In this document: piece by piece, positions 9,123 through 63,975 of the stretch
Numbering within the stretch: the stretch's first letter is position 1
Layout: every line of letters starts with the position of its first letter
NCBI GenBank assembly: GCA_013265495.1
Contig: MU058198.1
Span: 6,897,779 to 6,961,778 of the forward strand
Reading direction: 5' to 3'
Origin: Vicugna vicugna
Taxonomy: Eukaryota
Length of the DNA stretch: 64,000 bases
Notes under the pieces: generated by a model
What the model was told of the DNA's origin: nothing
The model's database searches: none
What the model saw: only the letters and a program-made list of their open reading frames with translations
Made by a program: the position numbers and the translations under genes

Positions 9123-12899
<3,777 letters not shown>

Positions 12900-21970: not shown

Positions 21971-23872
21971 TCTGTGAGGGCTATTAAGGACCTCAGCCCA
22001 GCCCCCACCGCATCTGAATGAGGGCAGGTGGAACTGAACTGGGGCTCCCCTCTAAGTTACACGTTTTTGTTTACCTGTTTTAGTCGGCCGCCCCCATTAT
22101 AATCCCAGAGGGATGGGAATTAGTCCTGTTCACGCTTGCAGCCCCAGTGCTTACTTAGTACAAGGCCTGGCACGGTTGGTATACCTAAGTATTTGTTCAA
22201 TGGGTGAAGGAACCCAGTCCAAATCTCTTTCCAGGGCCCCAGAGAAATCTCTTCCATGGAGGACCTCCGAAGTTCAAGGCGGAAAGGATCCCACCTTTCC
22301 CACATCAAGCCTGTACCTGAGTCAACATAACCTCCCTGATTCCAGAATGGTCCCTTTGACACACCTCAGTTGTTATTGTCTGCAACTTTATTCCCTTTTT
22401 TAATAAGAGGAAACTGGCTGAAAGAGATCAAATAATTTGTTCATGGTTGCATAGCTCAGGATTTTGAGTTTGAATCAAGGTTGAAATTTGAACCCAGGAA
22501 AGCTGTGTTCTCAGTTCTAGTTTCTTCTCCTGCTGTCACTTACTCTTTCCGGAGCTCACTTTGTTATTATAAACTTACAATACACCCCAAACTGGCATCT
22601 GAAGTCCTCTGCTTCCCTAATCTCTTGCTGCAGGCAGAGGAAGCGATTGGTTTTTAAGTAAACTTCGTGGTGTCTGATTCCTTTTGGAAAGTCCTTTTTG
22701 CTATCTTCTATTGACCCTCAACTTCTACTTGCTTTACTTCAGACTGTTTCAGAGAGCTGAGTGAGGTTAGGCACGGAAGTGAGGCCACACTAGGTATAGG
22801 TTTGATTTTTAATGTAGGCAACAGGTGCAACTGTGCAGAGAGAAGGAAAGGACCAAGTTTTAAAACTCCTAGAAGGTGCTAGGTTCCTATGCAGATCACT
22901 ATAGGGATTTAGTAGGTCCAGAGATCAAAAAGGTCAAGGTGCCTTTTTTTTTTTTTTTTTCCTAGAATGGAGCTCAGACAGGAAAGGGTCCATATCAGGA
23001 AATTTGGGGAGTGGCAGGACCAACTAGTTCTCTGGTTATGACTAGGATCTTTAATACCAGAAAAGATCTGGTGTAGCTACTGTTATACCTCATCCTGGGC
23101 AAATGGGGAAGGGTTCAAGGCATGGCACAGGTTAAGTGCAGGGCCCTCATTCTGGCTTCATGGAATGCAGAGGCCATAGAGGTTCAGTTCTTAACCTGGA
23201 ACCTGAGCTTCACAGTTTGTGTGTGTGTGTGTATCTGTTGCTGAGGGGTTGTTAGAGAGGAGGATTCTAGGTTCTTCAAGGGGTTCCACAGCCCAAAGTC
23301 TTAAGAAGACAGTTCTAATCACGTCTCCTATTCAGATGAGAAGACAGACAGACAAGCTCAACAGTGTAGACTAAGGAGATATGCATTAATAACCTTGTTT
23401 CAACAAAAACACAGTGCCATCCCCAGCAAGAGAGCCTTAAGGACAAATTGGGAATAACAGCATCTACTCTTATAGAATACTTACTATGTTGCCTGGTTTA
23501 TAGATTCAGGAAATCTTAGTTTTTGTCAGTGGCTCTTTTTTGTCATGGGGGCCTTCTACACCCATGAGTCCTGGACCTAAAAGTAAGGCTGAGGCTTCTT
23601 CTTCTGTGCTCTGCTACCTCCCCCAGCCCTCCTCTCCCCTAGACACCACAGACATGGACAACAGACTCCCCCTTAAATAGTTGTTTATTGGCAATACGCT
23701 GGAAAGGGTGATGGAGTTAGCGTACACAGACAACATCATGCACCAATGTCACCAGGGAGGCAAGAGTGACAGGAAAGAGCAGTCTGGAGCCCTGGGTGAG
23801 GCCTCCTCTCTTCAAGAGTGAGTGTGGGAGGGGCCGCAGCCTGGAGTGTTGAGGGGGCAGCCTTGGCTCGGC

Positions 23873-26487
<2,615 letters not shown>

Positions 26488-27479: not shown

Positions 27480-28720
27480 TGCTTCCTCCCGGCAGTGACT
27501 CAGCGCGGAGCGGCCGCTGCATTGCGTAGCAAACCAAGGGAGCTCAAGCTGAAAGAGTTGGGTAGTCTAGTCTGGGAGCATACGCGTGGGTGGTGGTGGA
27601 AGTGAGAGATGCTGGGGCCGAGTGGGGGGCTCGGCGCCGACGCCCGCCCCGCCACTGCCCCCAGGACCCTGCTCCATGACCCTCTCCCTGACCTTCGCAC
27701 GTGGCGAGGGGCGCTCACCTTGCACAAGAGAGGGGTGGGTTGGCGGGGTGTAGCGGTGGAGGACCGCGGGTCGGCGACTGGACTGAGGGAGCGAACGCGG
27801 CAGTCGTCACCAGGACTCTGGTTCTGCGGCGCGTTCCAAGCGGAACGCAGCCTATTCAGCTTCCGAGAGGGGGGCGCAGGGGGGCGGGCGTAGGTGGTGC
27901 CCCGCCTTATAAAGTCACCGCTCCACCTTCGGCAGGGTTTTTCCCTTCGCAGGGGGCGGGAGGCTCCCCGGCGTCCAATAGCAGGCGAGGAACTAGGGGA
28001 GAGGCCGTCCCCCGAAAGGCGAAGCCCGGAGGCGGCGCTTGGGCTGGGACAGATCCCCGAGAACACGATCCCTCCCCACCGTCGCCCTCGGACGTGACTC
28101 GGGCCACATCCCGCGGGTCGTCTGGGCCCTCCCCTCCCTCTCTCCTCTTCTCCCCGACCCCCCCAACCCCGCCCCGGCCTGGCATACTCTGGGGCTCTGT
28201 GACTCAGCCGATTTTTGGCGCCGGAAGAGATGGGGATGGGGGTGGGTTGAGTGAGGGAAAAGCGGGTGGCGAAGCCCGAAAAGACAGAGGCTCAGCTTCC
28301 CTCCGCAGGCGCAGCGGTCCTGGGCAGCCCCAGCTTCCGGCCGCGCTGAGGCAGCGTGTCACATTGTAACCGAATCCAGAGGCCAGGCGACTGCGGGCCG
28401 CGACTGAAGAGAGGCGGAGGAAAGGGCGGCGAGGGCACTAACGGAGAGCGCGAGAAGGCGGCCGGGGCTGGCAGGGGGCGGAGGCGAGGCGGCAGCGGTT
28501 CCGGATGTACTGCCGGGCCGGTACCCCCACCGCATCTGCGCCGCATCCTGGCGGGTCGGACTCGCGGGACGGGGAGGATTAGCCTCGCCCGCGCGTGCGC
28601 ACGCGCCCGCTCCCCCGGGCCGCCAGCAAAAGCCAGACCCAGCGAAAACTGGCTGGCCACCCCTCCGACCAACCAAACCTGGGGATGCGCGGCCAGAGTC
28701 CTTGCGAAACGACTCCCTGG
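27480..28720 (-). promoter_or_regulatory. ALDOA: ALDOA housekeeping CpG-island promoter region
   Basis: CpG-dense. E-box/HRE CACGTG (27698-27703) and GACGTGAC (28091-28098), AP-1/ARE-like TGACTCAGC (~27496, ~28200), TTATAA (~27907) and GC boxes. Confidence 0.75.
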
Positions 28721-28871
28721 GCCTGACTTCCCTCTCCAAAATAAAACCCGTCCCTGATCTGTAAGCCTCCCAGATACTTTCCGAGCCCCTCATCCTACCG
28801 GCCAGGTCCCTCTTCCTAGTCATGACGCCTTTAGCCCACCCCAACCCGGGCTCTATCCCGCTGGTGCCCAC

Positions 28872-29060
28872 CTGCGAGGCGGCTGAAGGAGCGGACAGAG
28901 CCTGGTCAGCAGCGAGTGAGCCAGACCACACCCGGGCTGGTTATAAGGCAGCTCCGGCCCTCCCTCCAACAAGTGTCCCTGACCTTCTCCTGTGACCCCT
29001 GCCCTTTCCTCACCACAGATTCCCTGGCAGGGACCTATATTTAGGGAAACCTGAAGCCCC
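28872..29060 (-). promoter_or_regulatory. ALDOA: ALDOA muscle-specific promoter (pM) and M exon
   Basis: MEF2 site CTATATTTAG (29035-29044) next to MEF3/SIX site GAAACCTGA (29046-29054). Nuclear-receptor half-sites TGTCCCTGACCT (~28974), TATA TTATAA (28941-28946) and donor CAG|GTGGGC at 28872. This matches the known aldolase A muscle-promoter architecture. Confidence 0.8.
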
Positions 29061-29819
29061 TGACATTCACACCAGCGTGGGGCCTAAAGTGAAGGAAGAG
29101 GGAGGAAGCTGTGGGCCTGCCTACTTTGGGGTGAGGAGGAGGGCCCCCTCCCCACTCACCTGCTCCTCAGAGACGGTTTTCCTTGGAAATCCAGACTGAG
29201 GCCCGCAAAAGTTTGTCAAGGGAAATAAATCTTTGGACAGGGGTCTGTGAGGAGGGAAAGAGGGGTAGGGGGACTCAGATCTGTGGCCCTCCCTGCCTCC
29301 TTTTCTGATCTCCCCTGCTCCTGACTCTGGGCCAGGACCTTGGCTGTTGTGATCCTCTGAAGCCTGCTTCTTTAGAGGGAGAGCAGATGCAGGCACTACA
29401 CTCATACCTCAAAATAACCCAGTCCATGGACAGGGTGTGGCTGGGGTACCCAACATCCTGATTCTCAAGGCCCAAGTTTCTCCCATAATGCTGCCTGTAG
29501 GGAGCAGTGTCCCCCACCCTCACCTTCAAACACAATCATTTACTTGGGGAGGAGGAGAGGAGGGCAGGGGCACCTGCCGAAGCACTAGCCCCTCTGTCTT
29601 CTGGCCTTCCAAAGGGGCTGCCGTCCAGCGAGCCAAGGGCTCTCTGAGTCTCGCTCTGCTGGGAGCCAGGCTCTCCGCTGCTGGTTCCCAGGCTGCTGAG
29701 CTGGGCAGGCCATTTGTGGTTCCAGTGGCCTGGAGAAAGGTGTCCTGAGGCCCCTCAGGGAACAGGGCATGTGGGCCCCGGGGGGTGGCCGCTCCCCAAG
29801 GGGCAGGGACACTGGGTCA

Positions 29820-32800
29820 TCATCGGAGCTTGATCTCAAAGCAGAGACAGTTGAGGCTCTGGCAGTCAGGAAGTTGGCACGCACAGGCACAGTCACAGAG
29901 TGGGCAGCAGCGAGGGCAGCGAGGGGCCCAATCCTGGAGGAGAGGAGAATGGGGTGAGGGAGGTGGGCACAAGGAAGGGGACCAGAGCCTGCAGCTGTTT
30001 CCTTCTCAAGGGAGAAGAGAACAGAGAGGCCTGGAAAGTCCCATTTGCCCAGTGGATCATAGGGTACCATCCATCATTCTTGGGAACAAATCAATTCCCT
30101 AAGCTGTTGAGAAATCAGCAAGGAGGCAATGTTCCTAACAGCTGGGTTCAGGAGGTAGAAGAAATCATTCAGGGGAGGTGTCTTCCTTTCTTCTCATTTT
30201 ATAGATGAGACTGAGGACCAGAGATCAGCTGACCCTTAGGTCCCAATGTTCAGCTCAAAGATGGTTCTACTACATATATCCTTGTGGCCTCATGCAGTTG
30301 AAAGTCAGTAGACCAGGAAAGCACAGACACTCTCTCTGTCCATGATGAAAATAACGTCGGTTTTGTGGATTTCTTCCTTGGCCTGAGGCCAAACTGCTGG
30401 ATCTCATTTGTCCTTCATTTCTGAGCACCTACTCTGTGCAAGGCACAGACTGCATTCATGAATGATTTTTAAAACTCTAGTTTTCTTTGAAAATTGTAAT
30501 TTGGCATATTTAATTTGTTAAATGTTTAAAAGGAGTTACATCTCTTGTTTATCAGAACCTGGAGTAGGGGGCCTGTTTACAAAAGAGGGAATGGAGTTTC
30601 AGAGAGGGGAGTGAGTGCCCAAAGAACTACAACTAGGGAATAGTGCTGGGATGGGCCTGGGCCTGCCTGCTTCCAGTCCTGAGATTCCCCCATGACCCCA
30701 CTGCTTCCCAGGGCCATGGGTATCAGCTTCTTTCTGGGTCTGCTAGGGCAGGGACAGTTCATCTCCTGTCTCCACTGAGCTGCCAGGGGGCTTGGGCTCA
30801 GCAGATATCAGATAAAAGAAGACTGTTGAATGAATCAATCAATCAAAGCATATCATTTTTCTCCTCTTTAGGCAAAGAAGAAAGAAGAGAGTATCTCAGC
30901 TCCCAGGAGAAACAGGAGGTCTGTCTCTCAGGGAAAAGGAACAGCATGTCCTTAGAGACAGGGAGAACCGGTCCACTCCAACCCACTCCTCTTCTGCCCT
31001 GGGACAGGGATGATCTGTAACTGCTTCAGGCATGGACTGGAGTCAGGCCAAGTGGCTGGAGTGGGACACACCCAGTATGTGTGACAGAAGATTGGCTCCT
31101 TGAGGCCTGGGGCAGAGCTAGTGACAGTCACAGTTGCACAGCTCAATCAGACACCGGGCCAAGCCAGGAATAGGGGAATGACCTTTAAGAACAGCTGATG
31201 TTTCGGGGTGTGGTGTCAGATGACCAGTGAGATCAGCTTCACTAGGGGCTCCAGTGAGGGGAGAGGATCCACTACTGCCAAAAGAACTGTGTCTCAAGGA
31301 CGCACGAGAAGTAGCATGGTGGAAGGAGGCAATGGGGTGGTTTCCTTGTGTTTGATGGGGGTGTGGGCTGGGGTGTCTCTGGAGAGTCCCAGGCTGGGGC
31401 TGAAGTCAGCACTGTGGGTATTTGGAGGACCACACTGTTATCCTGTGTGCAGAACTGAGTGCTGAGAGAGGCTCCACTGCCCTCACTTCACAGAAGCGGG
31501 TATTAAAAGCATTTCTTGGCTCTGTCTGCTGGAAAGGTTTGGAGCTAGTCATTAATAACTCGCTAATGGATATCTCCAGTGGCTTCTGGAAGGAATCTGC
31601 TTTTTAAGTACATTTAACAAGGGCTCCACGTGACTGTTAACCCTGGTGTTTCTCTAGGCTGTGCAGTTTTTCACTCCCATTTCTTTCACTTTGAGGTTGT
31701 GAAGACCAGTCTTTACTGTTTGGCACTCAGGCCTGGGTTTCAGTCTAATTCAGGCCCAGGTTTGGCTAGTTCATGTTTTGATCCTCAGTTTCCTCATCTC
31801 TGAAACAAATATAACACCCACTTTACAAGGTTATTGTGGGGAATGAATGGAAAGAACGAAGCACAAGCCTGGTACGTAGTGAGCTCTTGCCATAGCTCTC
31901 TTTCCCTGCAGCAGTAGGTCTTAACCCTGGTGTGCATCAGAATCGTGTAAGAACTTGTTAAAAATTCACAAAATCCAATCCCATTCCCGATCTACAGGGC
32001 ATGGGGCCTGGATGCCTGGCTTTTCAGTTGTAGCCTCATACCTGATTCTGATCACACACAGGGCTGAAAACCAACTGTTGCACTAAATCACATCATTTCT
32101 CACACACAATTGTCATTGCCTCCTGTTTCTCTTTGTCCTTCACTGGAACGTGAGCCCCGTGAGGGCTGGGGCCATGTCTACCTTGCTTCCGCTGCACCCC
32201 CAGGGCCCAGCACAGTGCCACCACAGTGACTCTATAAATCTTTGGTAAGTGAATAAATAAGTGAATGAATGGATGAATTAGATCCTCGCAACACACTGTG
32301 AAAGAAGTAGAGCAGGCAGGTTTCTCCCCCAGAGAGAAAGAGAAACCTGGACTTGTGTCCTGACCCAGGCTTTAGGCAGGTCACACTGTCCACCACAGTT
32401 TCTCCAGCTACAAAGGAGGCAAGAGCTTTGGAATATTTGTGGTTGTTTTGTGGTTGTTATTGTTACTAGAAGGAAACTGAAGAACACAGAGGCCTCACTG
32501 TGCTTTGTGGAAAGACAGCTCAAGGACAGAATGACCCTGCCCACCATTCAGCATTCTAGAATCCTTCCTGGCTCTGGCAGAAGCCGGGTAGGACCAGGCC
32601 CTGAGGTCTCTGGGTCTGGACATCCCAGCAAACTGGAGGAGGTGGGAGGAGCCAGTCCCTCCTGATAGTGCACCTGACTCTCAAGGGGAAAAAAAGGCCT
32701 CTGACAATTTCCTCTCCATGGACAGAAAATGAAGGGAGTGGCGTCCCCAGGACATGGGGCCAGAAATTATTTTGTAATTGAGCATTTCCAAGGTCGTCTT

Positions 32801-35312
32801 CTTTTTCCCCTCTGTCCCCTTACCCTCAGCCCTGGGTCCCATCTCCCGGCTTCCCCTGAGAAACCAGAAGCAGATTATCTGAAAGAGGAGAGCTCCTTGC
32901 CCCATAATTTATTTTGAAACTCAAAACATCTTGCAGGGATTTGCAACCGCAGTCGGCCTGAATTATGAGTCTGCTTGGTCTTTTCCCCTCACTCTTCCCT
33001 CCCCAGGGAAGGTCCCCACTTCAAGGGCAGGTGCTTTGCTGTCTAAATCTCTGAGCCCAAAATAATCACAGCCTAGGAGGGTGGTCAATTACATTTAACA
33101 TCTTTAAAGCCACAAATGCAAAAATGGCCTGTCCTCTGCAAGCCAGGCTTCTCCCTGAGGGTTCTGTTTCAACACACCATGGAGCAATTTGCTAAGCAAG
33201 ACTCTACTGTGGAATGAATGCAGGAGAAGCGACTAAACTTTCCCGAGCTAATTTATTCCCTTGCAAAAGGAGGATTAAAAACATGGATAGGTAGCCAAGG
33301 TGTGATGGCAAGTTAAAAAGGGGCAAGTAGCAGTTGTAATGAAATAGTATATGTGGTATATATGGTATGAATACATTTTTATCAATAATAGAATACAACT
33401 GATATTACAGTGATAGCAATAGTACAGTATGTATGCTTATATATGAGGGGCATACACAAAACACAGCAACCTTGGTTAGAGCTGGTTTGTAAAGTGACTT
33501 GTACTTTCTATGTATTTCTACACACACACTTTGCAATCAATGCTCTTTGAAATCTGGAAGAAAAATGTATAGGCTTTTAAAAATACTCAGGGGCTGCTAA
33601 CAAAGTAGCCCAGTATCTAGAACATTGTATTCACTCAGCCAACAGAAGGAGCTCTGTAAGGGGCTCTGTTTATTCTTTTAACTACCACTTTCAGAAGTGC
33701 TTATGTGCCCGACAGGTTACACACATTACCTTTCTCAAGCTGCCACACTATTTTCTTTTCTCCAAGTAGCTTTCATTACCAGAAAGTATTGGATATGTTG
33801 TTTATGTTGGTTATGTTGTTTTTGGCTGTCTTCAATGGACCCAGTACCTGGAACTGTGCCCTGCCTAGAATAGGTGCTCAGTAATAAATGTTGTTGAACC
33901 CCAAAAAATGAATGCACAGATAGTACCAAGATCAGGGCTCAGGGGCCAGTGGCCAGGATGAGAACTCACAGCTTCGGAGGGCTGGGGGCAGCAGGCATCC
34001 AGGTAGTGGGCTGGGCTGGGCAGAGGGAAGTCGCAGGCTTCTGCACAGGTCCAGCAACAGTCTTGGGGCCTGGAGGCGCCTTGCTTCCTGCAGGGGGAAC
34101 TGCAGTCTGTGCAGCCCTGGGCCTAGGAGATCGCAAGGCTCAGGATCTAGACCAGGCGGCAGGTAGGGACAGCCAAGGCTTGGCTTTTGGGAGAGGGGCA
34201 GGAGAAGGTTCAGCTGGGGACAGGAGGGAGGGAAAGGGATAGATGGGGGGGACTAAATGGCAAAGGTGTCTCAGGGTACTGGCCTGCAGATGAGGGGACA
34301 AATTGACCAGGTTCTTCTTCCCCAGGGCCCACCCTGCAGTCCCCACCAGGCCCCTCACCAGCAGGCAATGCCTAGTCAGCAGCACTAGGCCCAGCAGCAA
34401 CAGATAGATGCCCACAGCGATGATGACGATGGCGGGGATGGGGAGCAGCAGGGAGGGACTGCTGACGGGAGCCGGGGTTGGATTCCACGGGCTAGAGGAG
34501 GCCTGGACAGCACAGGAGGAAGGGGTGACAAGGTGGTGGAGAGGGGCTGCAGGAACACAGAAATACCAGGAGGAACACTGGAGGTGACTGGGAAAAGGGG
34601 AGGAACAGCCAGCAGGTGGTGGGGAGAGAGTCAACAGGACTACACTGTCTTGTCCCCAAACCTTTTTTTTCCCTTTTCATCCTGATCTTAGCACCATCAA
34701 GGACCTGTTAGTTGTTCAAGACTTTTCCAAGACTTACTGATCTTCCTTTTGGAATGCCTCTCCAAACAGATCTATTGTCTCTGATTCCACTGCACTACTT
34801 TACCATCCCTCAGCCTGCAGTTGTGCTCCTTTCCACACCAGCTGTCCTTGTGTAGCCCTCCCTCCCTTGCAATCCATCAATGGCTCCCACTGACTCAGCC
34901 CAAACTTCTTATCAAAGTGACAAAGTCCTCAATCTAGCCCTGCCTTCCTCTCCCTCCCTTTCCCTCTACACTCCAGCCATACTGAAGTCCTAGCAGTTCC
35001 CCAAATGCCCTATCCTCTCTCTCATGCCCACATATCTGCCCATGCCTGTCCCCTGTCGGGATGCCTTTTCTCAACTACTTGGCCAACTCCTCATCATTGT
35101 AGGAACAGTGAAATGTGCCCTCCCGTGGGAAGGCCACTGCCCTTGCATTCTATTTCTCACAACTCTTGTCCTGAGCTGGAAGGGTCTAAGTTGTGTAAAG
35201 AGTCCCCTCTCCAGTCCGGGCTCGGGCTTGAAGGCAGTCAAAGCCAGGATGAGCTGAGGGCGCTGAGGGGGTCGCTCCAGAGAAGGGTAAGGGGCCTAGG
35301 ACTCACGTCCAT
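29820..35312 (-). CDS. Uncharacterised 138-aa single-pass membrane protein with a Cys-rich tail (probable ortholog of the uncharacterised human locus upstream of ALDOA, recalled as LOC112694756)
   Basis: Four phase-0 coding exons with canonical splice sites: 35312-35307 (MD), 34502-34359 (ASSSPWNPTPAPVSSPSLLLPIPAIVIIAVGIYLLLLGLVLLTRHCLL), 34122-33970 (AQGCTDCSSPCRKQGASRPQDCCWTCAEACDFPLPSPAHYLDACCPQPSEA) and 29933-29820 (DWAPRCPRCCPLCDCACACQLPDCQSLNCLCFEIKLR*). 20 Cys in total. Confidence 0.8.
31912..32076. mobile_element. MER5-like hAT-Charlie fossil
   Basis: CAGTAGGTCTTAACCCTGG..TGCATCAGAATC ... GATTCTGAT..GGGCTGAAAACCAACTG inverted ends. Confidence 0.6.
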
Positions 35313-35589
35313 GGGGCGGGACAGCGCCGGTCAGTTCAGGAGCTACAGAGGAGAGAAAGTCCTGGGTCTCAGAGACTGAGAGGGGCCATTAGGGTGGGGT
35401 GCCCATTCTCCTCCTCCCATTTCCCGTTTGGGGAAACTGAGGCCCAAAGATGGTCCCTGGTCCGGACAGTGGAGATCGGGGTGGGGTTCGGGGATTCCGG
35501 GCAGCGCCTCCTTCGAAGGTCCCAGCCCTACCCAAGCCACAACCCTCCGTTGTCCCCAAACCCCAGGCTCCCTCCATAGGACTATTCCC

Positions 35590-35900
35590 ATCACCTGCAC
35601 CCACGGGGCCACGGGCAGTTCACGGATTCTGCTCGGCGCTTGGGCCAATCCGCCGCGGCTGCACCTCACAAAAACCTCCCGCTAATTCTCGTTGTTGCCA
35701 TGGGGATCAGAGCGCCGCTCCTACGGCGGCCGCCGAGACCCAAAACTGCTTCTGCCCGCCTCGCTTCTCCTTCCCGAGCCTCTGCGGCCATCAGCTCTTC
35801 TTAGTCGCGGTCCTCTGGGCTTTCCCGTAGTTACCGAGTAGAAACGGCGCATTCCTGTCGTTACCCGCCTCGGTCGGATCCTCATCATCTGCTGGGTCCT
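35590..35900 (-). promoter_or_regulatory. CpG-island promoter and non-coding exon 1 of the Cys-rich ORF / distal ALDOA transcript
   Basis: CpG-rich. CCAAT (35645), X-box-like GTTGCCATGGGGAT (35694-35707), minus-strand donor CAG|GTGATG at 35595. The next exon, 35342-35307, carries the ATG. Confidence 0.7.
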
Positions 35901-38249
35901 GCGGGGCTACAAGGGGAAGACTGAACCCCCAGGCTACACCAACCACCAAATGGCTGTGTGACTTGGGCCAAGTCACTGTGACCCACTGACTCCGTTTTCT
36001 CCTTTGTAAACAGGGAAACTCCTGCCTTCCAGGGATATTGAAAAATTTAGAGCTACTTGTTAATCACATAGAATTATCCTCAATATTTTTTCAAGCTGTC
36101 CCCATTCATTTTTATTGACAGTGCCCAAATTTAAGTTTCATCATCTGATCTCTTCAACATTCACATCACTGTCGGAGTGATTCCCTCCCACCCACATCAG
36201 ATCTTGGTCCTTTTCTATTTTAAAAGCCCGAAGGCTCCCCATTCCAGGATACAGTTCAAATGCTTTAGCCCACTGTCCACACCATCCACCCTGGGCCCCA
36301 CTTAACTTACATTTGTTCATTCACAATGTATCCCACAGGATGCCAAGCACCGCTCTAGGCTTTGGGAACTCTGGTGGAGAATAAGGCAGACAATTTCCTG
36401 CCCTCAAGTTGCTTATATTCCACTGGGGGAAGAGGATCAGGTAACATGTAAACAAATAAGATTGTTTTGTGCCCCATCAGTTCTTTCAAGTTTCCACTAT
36501 AGGATCTGTTCAAGGTTTCTGAACCAGTGCATAGGGTTTCACAGCTCGACTCCTTTGCAGACGCTGTTCCCTCTGCCTAGAACACCCTTCCTGTCTCCCC
36601 TCCTCCTTCCTCATCCTTTGAGCCACCGCTCAGTTTTGCCTCAGGGAGGTCTTCCTGGCTGCCTCAGGCAGAGGTGGCTGCATTGAACACCATGTACATA
36701 CCTTCTAGCACTTATCACCAGGTATTTAAATTCCCCATGTCAGTGCCTGGCTCCCCAATTAGACTGCAAGTGCCTCCGTCTGATTCATCATCATATCCCA
36801 AGCCTCAGCAGTTGGCTTGGCCTTGGGGGGCCTCCAATGAGTACTTACTAATACTGTGAATGAACAGAATCCAACCAATGAAGTACTGTTATTCAGATGC
36901 CCTAGTTCCCTTGGCTCTTAAGGCCTACAACTTCCCACTTTCATTCCTGACCTTCTTGGTTCTACATACATACACATGCTCACATACACACTCTCACATA
37001 AGCACACCTCTCCACAGAGGCCTCAGACTTCACCCATGATTACTGCATCCTGACATGCTTCCCTGAAAGTAGCACCACTGTATACCTACTTTTGTCTATG
37101 TTCTCCAACCTGAGGTACCCCATCACAGCTGCTGCCCTCAGGAATTCCTGCACCATGAGGCAGCCACAGAAATTGCCAGGGTCTGTGTCCCTAGTTCCCA
37201 AATATCCCCCCTCCGTCTCAACCACACTGAGAGGGTCTCAGCCACCTCCTTTGCCACCCCCAGGCCTCTCAGAGGGGGCTTCAAGCCCAGAAAACAGGAA
37301 TCTAGTTGTCCCCCATGTCACCTCTGTTGATTCTGTCTGGGTCAGACTGCCGGCTTAGGGCTGTCCCCTTGTCTGCTCCCATCTTCTCTGCAGAATCCTG
37401 AGGCCCAAGATGACACCAGTTCCCACCTCAGCCCTGGAAAGTCTTCAGGTGACAACACTCCCTCCCTCTCTTCAGCTCCTGCCAACAGAGACACGTCAGC
37501 CTTGGCAAGGCCTCTGGACATGTCCATGGCCTGCAGAGGCCAGACTCACTGCAGATGGTATTCTGTTCCTACCATGGGCTCCTACATTATGCAGGAGGGT
37601 GGACAGGGCACCAGGTCTGCTCATTGCAAGGCAAGCCAATAGAAGGGGGGATATATGCAACTCACTTTGCCAGGGTCCCGCTTCTACCCATATCACACCA
37701 TTTGTTGGAGGCAGGGAAAAACTGACTTCACAAAAGCTGAATAGCCACAAGGTCTCCCTTTACGTAAAGTTCAAAGCTGGCGATGTCAGATATTATCAAG
37801 TGCGGTTTTGCACTGCCCCTGGGAAAGAAAGTAAAAGATCACATACTTACCATCATGGGGTGGGTGGGAGATCTGAGACGCAAAGAAAGCCCAGAAGATG
37901 AAAGATGCCTCTGCAGACCTGGGCCTGGGCGTGGGAAGAGAACCTGGCAGTTCTGATTTTGATCTAATACTTTCAGGCCCCTCCTATGGACATCAGATAA
38001 TACTGCCTCCCAGAAATGAGGAAGAGTTCACAGTCTCCTCATTATAAGACTGAAAGGCCTATGCTTAGGTAATTACCTTGAAGGAATTAGAAGCTGAGCT
38101 GAGCTAGAGCAAGTATCAGTAGAGGCCTCTTTACAGATTTTATTTTATTTCATCCTAACAGTAGACCCCAGTGGCAGAAACCATCATTTCCACTTTACAG
38201 GTGGGAAAGAATTATGATCCAGTTGAAAAGGAATTTTAGAACCAGGCAA

Positions 38250-39798: not shown

Positions 39799-39926
39799 GG
39801 GGAGGGTATAGCTCAAGTGGTAGAGCGCATGCTTAGCATGCAGGAGGACCTGGGTTCAATCCACAGTACCTCCTCTAAAGATAAATAAATAACCTAATTA
39901 TTTCCCCCCACCCCCGCCAAAAAAAT
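39799..39926 (+). mobile_element. tRNA-Ala-derived SINE (camelid Vic-1-like)
   Basis: GGGGAGGGTATAGCTCAAGTGGTAGAGCGCATGCTTAGCATGCAGGAGGACCTGGGTTCAATCC with A and B boxes, then AAATAAATAACCTAATTATTTCCCCC and an A tail. Confidence 0.85.
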
Positions 39927-47008: not shown

Positions 47009-52224
<5,216 letters not shown>

Positions 52225-53233: not shown

Positions 53234-54115
53234 CTAGGCCCCTTTCTGGAAGTTCCTGTAGGGTATGGAGAGCAGGGGTGGGAAGTCACACCACTTCCCT
53301 GAGACTTTGGGTCCTTCAGCCTCTCTTCAGGAAGGCTGAGGTGGGTGGGGCCAGGGATGGGGGTGGGGCAGGCCTCACATGTGTGTGCAGAACTGGAAAA
53401 GAAGGAAGAAGAAGGCCGCCACCAGAGCGCCCACCAGGATGTGATGGAAGAGCCTGGAGTCGGAATCTGCTAGACAGTGAGGGGGAGACAGGGACCTGGA
53501 CTCATCTCCAACCAAAAGGCCAAGGGCAGCTGTCCACCAGGCACTGTCAAGGAGGGAGGCCCCTTCTCAAACTGGTTCATACCTGAGTTAAAGATGACAG
53601 GTCTCTCTCCAATGAACTGGGCCAGGGCCAGGAGCCTGGCTTGGTCCGAGTCTGGGTAATCAAAGAAGTCAGGTCTGTCTAGGAAGAGTGGAGACTCTGC
53701 TCCTGGGGCCAAGGCCTTGGCACTCTCCGGGTTGGGTGCTGGGGACCAAGAGCAAAGTCTGAAAGAGCCAAGCAGACCCCTGCCCCCTACTCCCAGAGGC
53801 TGGGGCAGACCCAGGGCCCTGCCAGGCCACACAGTCTAGTGAAGCTGTGGAAGGGCCTGGTTTTGTTCCAGGAACTTCTTGAGGGTCAGCCTAGCCTTCC
53901 ACCAAAAGGCCCACACTAGGCAGGAAGGATAGGAGAGAAGTGCGGAAAGCAAAGAGAAAGGCCCGTGCTTGGCCTCCCAGCTTCTCAGGGGCATTGACAC
54001 TCCCCTACCCGAGCCTTCCTCCTCCCCACTATTCCCAGGCCAGCTTCCCACCTGATTCTACAGTCCCCAGCCCAACCAGCCACACCCACACCCAGGCCCA
54101 CTGCCACAGCCTCAT
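53234..54115 (-). CDS. C16orf92: Fertilization-influencing membrane protein FIMP (109 aa)
   Basis: Minus-strand exons 54115-54052, 53738-53583, 53466-53379 and 53255-53234 total 330 nt. Signal peptide MRLWQWAWVWVWLVGLG, core PLFLDRPDFFDYPDSDQARLLALAQFIGE, TM ILVGALVAAFFFLLF, end MNFQKGA*. Poly(A) signal at 53163-53168 (-). CRE-like TGATGTCA at 54151. Confidence 0.9.

Positions 54116-60245: not shown

Positions 60246-63975
<3,730 letters not shown>

Follow-up and report, generated by a model that had tools for sequence, protein, structure and literature searches.

The gene and its exons

The stretch of Vicugna vicugna DNA considered here is 64,000 nucleotides long; the whole of it is referred to as the window, and all coordinates are counted within it. 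The subject is a gene of four coding exons on the minus strand, whose product has one hydrophobic segment followed by a long cysteine-rich tail. Judged from the sequence, this four-exon structure is a genuine protein-coding gene, far beyond what chance would produce, and the exon model given in a first-pass annotation of the same DNA (138 residues, 20 cysteines) holds throughout, all four segments being found on the minus strand where it had placed them. The coding segments and the introns between them are as follows.

35307..35312, minus strand: coding part of exon 1, Met-Asp, read in the sequence as ATG (35312-35310) and GAC (35309-35307), after which comes a GTGAGT donor; identified from the sequence, in-frame upstream stops and placental models
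34503..35306, minus strand: intron 1, 804 nucleotides, phase 0; identified from the sequence
34359..34502, minus strand: exon 2, 48 amino acids, encoding a Ser/Pro-rich N-terminus, the transmembrane helix and an R-H-C juxtamembrane stretch, with acceptor ...CTGTCCAG and donor GTGAGG; identified from hydrophobicity, AlphaFold2 and orthologue identity
34123..34358, minus strand: intron 2, 236 nucleotides, phase 0; identified from the sequence
33970..34122, minus strand: exon 3, 51 amino acids, the first half of the cysteine-rich tail with 9 cysteines, acceptor ...CTCCTAG and donor GTGAGT; identified from the sequence and protein matches
29934..33969, minus strand: intron 3, 4036 nucleotides, phase 0, with GT at 33969-33968 and AG at 29935-29934
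29820..29933, minus strand: coding part of exon 4, 37 amino acids and TGA, the second half of the tail with 10 cysteines, acceptor ...CTCCTCCAG; identified from the sequence and conservation

There are several features of note in this structure. First, a pyrimidine tract and AG stand ahead of each of exons 2, 3 and 4, the introns are all of the GT-AG type and in phase 0, and joining the segments by script yields a spliced frame of 417 nucleotides, or 138 amino acids, in which every one of the 20 cysteines is C-terminal to the helix. Second, the start codon is bounded by in-frame TGA and TAG stops 7 and 11 codons ahead of it and has the context CGCCCCATGG, and the same Met-Asp start is used in most placental models, including the curated mouse protein NP_001405981.1. 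Third, models from other species that run on into the introns provide an internal control for the exon borders; in several of them the 3′ end of intron 1 is read as an N-terminal extension. Exon 2 is identical at 38–46 of 48 positions in six orthologue models while the neighboring intron 1 translation matches at 5–30 of 58, and exon 3 is identical at 42–49 of 51 positions in seven models while the neighboring intron 3 translation matches at 0–19 of 34. Conservation therefore drops sharply from exon into intron and ends at the proposed splice sites. Finally, in some Logan-derived proteins exons 2, 3 and 4 of a mouse-like sequence are found joined, and the contigs that encode them measure only some 1.2 kb (P0038 on 7 contigs and P0121 on 3); contigs of this length would have room for all three exons only with the introns spliced out – in the window, intron 3 by itself is about 4 kb – and we take this as indirect support for splicing.

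The gene is present in a single copy in its own 2.03-Gb assembly, where searches gave three exon matches at the locus and one weak match elsewhere. The latter, on another contig, has an E value of 3.1e-4, 36% identity and two internal TGA stops, and is probably an unrelated cysteine-rich stretch.

Orthologues and annotation status

The gene is almost certainly orthologous to human LOC112694756 and to mouse Gm57854 (LOC129135233). Its product shares 136 of 138 residues with Camelus ferus XP_032316398.1 (‘LOC112694756 homolog isoform X1’), 125 of 138 with human NP_001352233.1 (LOC112694756 isoform 1, 139 amino acids, UniProt A0A2U3TZJ4), and 119 of 138 with the curated mouse protein (Gm57854 / LOC129135233, 138 amino acids). 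The human, mouse and Camelus ferus orthologues also share the Met-Asp start, the helix, the two cysteine-rich exons and the place between TLCD3B and ALDOA. A near-identical human open reading frame had been mentioned in the first-pass annotation, and NP_001352233.1 is that protein; the chimpanzee copy is filed as ‘ALDOA isoform 8’. The gene had at the same time been described as hidden, which it is not: RefSeq holds curated human and mouse entries and models in dozens of mammals, among them a Camelus ferus model with the same 138-residue structure. It is thus already annotated, and the window adds no new gene.

The human RefSeq record contains two curated isoforms, of 139 and 91 amino acids, the second lacking exon 2 and hence the helix. 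Because all introns are in phase 0, forms that skip an exon stay in frame, and such forms are annotated elsewhere too, with 90 or 91 amino acids where the helix exon is missing and 87 where exon 3 is missing (Ensembl-derived UniRef entries). When exon 3 alone was compared with longer proteins, 46 were found at E ≤ 0.01 among 46 candidates, and all of the named ones are mammalian.

The start of exon 3 (34100-34122, minus strand) reads A-Q-G-C-T-D-C in both Vicugna and Camelus ferus and A-Q-G-C-C-T-D-C in nearly all other mammals. Exon 3 accordingly has 9 cysteines in Vicugna and in the Camelus ferus model and 10 in most orthologues, and most other mammalian proteins have 139 amino acids; the Camelus ferus model shares both the 138-residue length and the missing codon. 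This in-frame loss of one cysteine codon looks lineage-specific. The two residues at which the Vicugna and Camelus ferus proteins differ are I29V and C80F, so that the cysteine at residue 80 is also lost in the Camelus ferus model and is present in the window.

The first-pass annotation knew of no function for the protein, and the literature bears this out, in that searches returned gene lists only. No functional study of the gene was found under its human, mouse, rat or zebrafish symbols or its protein accessions, nor in the ALDOA literature on bicistronic transcripts, upstream open reading frames (uORFs), microproteins or cysteine-rich products, in both cases with supplementary files outside the coverage of the searches. 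In the accessible text of the articles concerned, the human symbol LOC112694756 appears in copy-number and expression gene lists only, and the same searches returned nothing at all for the mouse, rat and zebrafish symbols or the protein accessions. The symbol AC093512.2 (ENSG00000285043) was considered as an alias and dropped, because the accessible part of PMC10575785 puts it between DOC2A and FAM57B and it may be a different gene.

An unnamed family of animal proteins

A profile built from 14 mammalian sequences was run against 1.84 billion representatives and identified 62 proteins at E ≤ 1e-3, with 27 at E ≤ 1e-10, and a second profile search gave at least 88 proteins at E ≤ 1e-3 among 8000 scored candidates. 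The vertebrate members, named by exact look-up, come from echidna, marsupials, turtles, geckos, the frog Mantella and teleosts (si:ch211-198p11.6). Invertebrate members come from the hemichordate Ptychodera, Priapulus, horseshoe crabs (Limulus), orb-weaving spiders, the annelid Capitella, Argonauta, Gigantopelta, oysters, Intoshia, Seison and the sponge Amphimedon. By profile similarity the protein belongs to an unnamed animal family whose members range from sponges to mammals. The extent of this family is new here, and its reach well past the vertebrates had not been noticed in the first-pass annotation.

Conservation was counted in an alignment of 55 family members, where at least 60% of the members share the cysteine in 22 columns and at least 80% do so in 11. 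There are three conserved blocks. The first is a helix signature at residues 20-46 of the Vicugna protein, with an L-P-x-P-A-I lead-in, a tyrosine in the middle of the helix and an arginine directly after it; its columns are kept in 43–52 of the 55 members (Pro23 in 43, Ile27 in 46, Tyr35 in 52 and Arg46 in 51). The second is a middle motif in exon 3, C-C-x-x-C-A-E-x-C-D ... P-S ... L-D-x-C-C-P, with C74 kept in 45 members, C81 in 49, P86 in 52, D93 in 49 and C96 in all 55. The third is a C-terminal motif in exon 4, C-D-C-A-C-x-C-Q-x-P-[DE]-C-x-x-x-N-C-[LI]-C-F-E-I, with C126 kept in 50 members, N130 in 49, C131 in 53 and C133 in 55. The end of exon 4, C-D-C-A-C-A-C-Q-L-P-D-C-Q-S-L-N-C-L-C-F-E-I-K-L-R, is nearly invariant in mammals, and the final 30 residues vary little or not at all across 14 placental and marsupial sequences. 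P97 and E135 are further positions other than cysteine that are kept in the family.

No described family corresponds to this pattern. Searches of all Pfam-A with hmmscan matched none of the three exons at E ≤ 10. With 12 members at E ≤ 1 they gave just two matches, both to the helix and both below threshold: CD20 scored 16.1 bits, where the cut-off is 27.9, and DUF7248 scored 14.7, where it is 27. A search of PDB sequences with the family profile returned only two non-significant matches, with E values of 0.37 and 0.41, over the helix of the sodium channel beta-2 subunit. In the ESM Atlas, compared by language-model features, only the family's own clusters and influenza B NB (score 0.76) were found, and the tail alone gave no usable match to the named clusters.

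Membrane helix and topology

The protein contains a single hydrophobic segment, at residues 26-44, with a mean Kyte-Doolittle value of 3.09. AlphaFold2 models a helix at about residues 24-51 of an orthologue with a predicted local distance difference test score (pLDDT) of 85–97; the mean pLDDT is 56 with 29 aligned sequences and 54 with 55, and the helix alone is confident. A structure prediction had been among the checks proposed in the first-pass annotation, and it modeled the transmembrane helix confidently and left the cysteine tail without confident structure. A plain anchor would not require conservation of the helix to this degree, which hints at a partner within the membrane.

Four observations favor an orientation with the N-terminus outside and the C-terminus inside. 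First, the flank C-terminal to the helix is more positive than the N-terminal flank in 26 of 34 members, although the two do not differ in the mammalian sequences, and in 51 of 55 members an arginine comes right after the helix. Second, the number of cysteines is odd in 27 of the 55 tails. Third, mollusc members carry long Lys/Ser-rich C-terminal extensions without cysteines. Fourth, the curated helix-less human isoform 2 has no signal peptide. From these features we consider an N-out, C-in arrangement, with the tail in the cytosol, to be probable, and the type III membrane protein proposed in the first-pass annotation is thus the orientation we favor on the strength of the flank charges and odd cysteine counts.

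The cysteine-rich tail

The median tail of the family has 22 cysteines in 93 residues, with 4 CC, 4 CxC and 3 CxxC motifs. The odd cysteine counts together with the abundance of these motifs argue against an ectodomain in which all cysteines are paired in disulfides, and for thiolate ligands. The conserved spacing, along with the conserved residues P86, D93, P97, N130 and E135, points to a defined and probably metal-held fold and not to a mere string of acylation sites. We put metal binding as the main role of the tail at somewhat under an even chance, and those cysteines that adjoin the helix are likely to be palmitoylated; both possibilities had been raised for the tail in the first-pass annotation.

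A UniRef entry for a felid orthologue carries the label ‘4Fe-4S ferredoxin-type domain’. The corresponding pattern C-x2-C-x2-C-x3-C-[PEG] occurs in none of the 55 members and is absent from the Vicugna protein, no Fer4 family appeared in the Pfam searches with the exons and the 12 members, and the label was set aside.

Our best explanation overall is that this genuine single-copy gene encodes a type III, membrane-tethered metal-thiolate protein, an account about which belief and doubt are evenly balanced. The gene has TLCD3B on one side and ALDOA on the other, shares its strand with ALDOA and follows a CpG island of its own, and its product would insert into the membrane as a type III single-pass protein with the short Ser/Pro-rich N-terminus outside the cell or in the lumen and the tail of about 90 residues in the cytosol. 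In that reducing environment the approximately 22 positionally conserved cysteines, arranged as CC, CxC and CxxC, could serve as thiolate ligands for metal ions, most likely in metallothionein-like Zn or Cu clusters, with an iron-sulfur center possible, while the cysteines adjacent to the helix would probably be S-palmitoylated. The outcome would be a membrane-tethered module for binding or sensing metal. The conserved helix, with Tyr35 and Arg46, suggests docking onto another membrane protein, and exon skipping would yield shorter in-frame forms, including the soluble helix-less form curated in human.

There are several points that weigh against this explanation. First, the tail has a pLDDT below 50 with both alignments, so that AlphaFold2 provides no fold to support a metal site. 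Second, none of the metal-binding Pfam families is matched by the exons at E ≤ 10 or by the 12 members at E ≤ 1. Third, mammals have replaced some of the family-wide cysteines (columns 83 and 91), and the camel model has lost one more. Fourth, the charges of the 15-residue flanks are equal (0 versus 0) in the Vicugna protein and its closest mammalian relatives, and because of this the case for the topology draws mostly on the invertebrate sequences and the arginine after the helix. Fifth, three invertebrate members begin with M-G-x-x-x-S/T, the N-myristoylation consensus, and these starts could be read as N-myristoylation, which would put the N-terminus in the cytosol. Finally, splicing and expression in Vicugna vicugna itself are predicted solely from orthology.

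Of the alternatives, the one that survives best is that the tail works mainly as a cysteine string, S-palmitoylated at many positions and lying against the membrane's inner face, which sorts or clusters the protein and holds no structural metal. The evidence for a cytosolic tail applies to it equally, cysteine columns 48, 54 and 55 follow the helix immediately, clusters of this kind are what palmitoylated strings look like (in cysteine-string protein and the cytosolic tails of viral spikes, for example), and the lack of a predicted fold for the tail agrees with it. However, cysteines and several other residues stay in register over about 90 residues from sponge to mammals, which is beyond the usual needs of acylation, and a soluble isoform lacking the helix is curated in human. 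We regard acylation as the tail's principal purpose as unlikely, at perhaps one chance in a few, while noting that palmitoylation and metal binding can coexist.

The reverse, type II orientation would place the cysteine domain in the lumen or outside the cell, as a small disulfide-folded ectodomain resembling a ligand or receptor. The conserved cysteine positions, the neutral flanks on both sides of the mammalian helix and the M-G-x-x-x-S/T starts can all be cited for it. Each of the observations that favor the N-out arrangement tells against it, however: the more positive C-terminal flank in 26 of 34 members, the odd cysteine count in 27 of 55 tails together with abundant vicinal CC and CxC pairs, the Lys-rich and cysteine-free mollusc extensions, and a helix-less isoform that, having no signal peptide, could not reach the lumen. 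We consider this orientation distinctly improbable.

Genomic neighborhood and the link to ALDOA

Neighbors of the gene were identified by Pfam searches of open frames lying beyond the locus, of which the 148 longest were used, and ALDOA by tblastn. The features around the gene are listed below.

35250..36000, minus strand: CpG island over and just upstream of exon 1; 500-bp windows have a GC fraction of 0.62–0.63 and a CpG observed/expected ratio of 0.60–0.78, with flanks below 0.4
29539..29544, minus strand: AGTAAA, the sole variant of a poly(A) signal shortly after the stop codon, from a motif scan
23876..26397, minus strand: ALDOA coding exons, the downstream neighbor, from tblastn with an aldolase-containing model
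9220-10989, plus strand: T-box exons consistent with TBX6 (Pfam, E 1.4e-48 and 5.5e-07)
50711-52221, plus strand: TLC-domain (TLCD3B-like) exons (Pfam)
53473-53835, minus strand: open frame of FIMP, fertilisation-influencing membrane protein (C16orf92; Pfam, E 3.3e-29)
62725-63972, plus strand: three C2-domain open frames consistent with DOC2A exons (weak Pfam matches, E 3e-4 to 9.5e-4, below the cut-off)

The order in the window – TBX6, ALDOA, the gene, TLCD3B, FIMP and DOC2A – matches that of human 16p11.2, which according to the accessible text of PMC11354020 runs DOC2A, C16orf92, TLCD3B, LOC112694756, ALDOA, PPP4C, TBX6. The gene thus lies where its human orthologue does, between TLCD3B and ALDOA and on the same strand as the latter. 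Two Rfam matches to transfer RNA (tRNA), at 39802-39874 and 50226-50297 on the plus strand (41.1 and 40.9 bits), fall in intronic or intergenic DNA and may be heads of tRNA-derived short interspersed nuclear elements rather than tRNA genes.

The CpG island at 35250-36000 is likely the gene's own promoter. ALDOA has a CpG island of its own at about 27500-29000 and an AATAAA at 23689, and its coding exons begin about 3.4 kb past the gene's stop codon on the common strand. On the minus strand between that stop codon and the ALDOA coding exons, no AATAAA or ATTAAA was found; about 2.6 canonical signals would be expected in these 3.4 kb from the window average of 0.75 per kb, but the absence is weak evidence because the stretch is GC-rich. 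Aldolase models in the databases carry the gene's exons at their N-terminus, the 139-residue sequence is filed in chimpanzee under the ALDOA name already mentioned, and an 87-residue lemur isoform is filed as ‘Aldolase, fructose-bisphosphate A’. Such fusions and names fit transcripts that run on into ALDOA, and they agree with the placement of the reading frame inside a long ALDOA 5′ untranslated region that the first-pass annotation had given for human. In the accessible part of PMC8848773 the expression value of LOC112694756 stands beside those of ribosomal protein genes, which suggests, by inference only, that the human model shares ALDOA exons. With the gene entangled in ALDOA transcript models, expression counts of either may be confounded.

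It might be supposed from this arrangement that the frame is mainly a long uORF of ALDOA transcripts from the distal CpG island, tuning the translation of aldolase and encoding a dispensable peptide. The common strand, the missing canonical poly(A) signals (with the reservation just made for a GC-rich stretch), the fused and ALDOA-named database entries and the expression value in the part of PMC8848773 that was available would all accord with it. The peptide, however, is conserved far beyond mammals, in animals for which no link to aldolase is shown, and its conservation tracks the exon borders, and we therefore think a purely regulatory role very improbable. A regulatory role for ALDOA could exist in addition to the protein.

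A broader picture may be drawn, although we doubt that all of its parts will hold together. It would comprise a membrane-tethered metal-thiolate (or iron-sulfur) protein of ancient origin and pan-animal distribution, overlooked because classic invertebrate models may lack the family, co-transcribed in mammals with aldolase A from a distal promoter, and a dosage-sensitive gene of 16p11.2. The accessible text of PMC11354020 places the human orthologue inside the recurrent 16p11.2 deletion/duplication interval. The protein is highly conserved, with cysteines that are position-specific from sponge to human, yet it has no Pfam family and no solved relative; a defined topology, together with a metal or acylation assay, would open up a family found in most animal phyla.

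Comparison with known systems

Four known systems invite comparison. Automatic names given to orthologues (‘keratin-associated protein 10-x’, ‘sperm mitochondrial-associated cysteine-rich protein’, ‘Mst84Db’ and ‘late cornified envelope-like’) point to structural cysteine-rich proteins, but the likeness to keratin-associated proteins and SMCP extends only to a high content of cysteine and proline; those proteins are without a transmembrane helix, the conserved helix and the non-repetitive, position-specific cysteine pattern of the family are foreign to them, no such Pfam family is matched by 12 members (E ≤ 1) or the three exons (E ≤ 10), and the names vary between species for one and the same orthologue, so that we give this assignment practically no credence.

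Influenza B NB (PF04159), a small type III membrane protein, resembles the arrangement predicted for the family: a short ectodomain at the N-terminus with no signal peptide, then a single helix, then a C-terminal part that is larger. It is the first Pfam-bearing cluster by the language-model features (at the score given above), which by the tool's own rating makes it a lead only, and it differs from the family in having no sequence relation to it and no cysteine-rich tail.

Palmitoylated cysteine strings, such as those of DNAJC5 and viral spike tails, share with the family a cluster of cysteines directly after the membrane segment, on what is probably the cytosolic side in the family. The cysteine region of the family is about 90 residues long, however, and its spacing is kept in register from sponge to mammals.

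Metallothioneins (PF00131 and relatives) contain about 20 cysteines in CC, CxC and CxxC motifs with few aromatic residues or histidines, and the family resembles them in these respects and in a location that is probably cytosolic. No match to the metallothionein Pfam profile was found with the three exons or the 12 members. In contrast to metallothioneins, the family has a membrane anchor, a lower cysteine fraction (median 0.23), conserved residues other than cysteine, and some aromatic residues.

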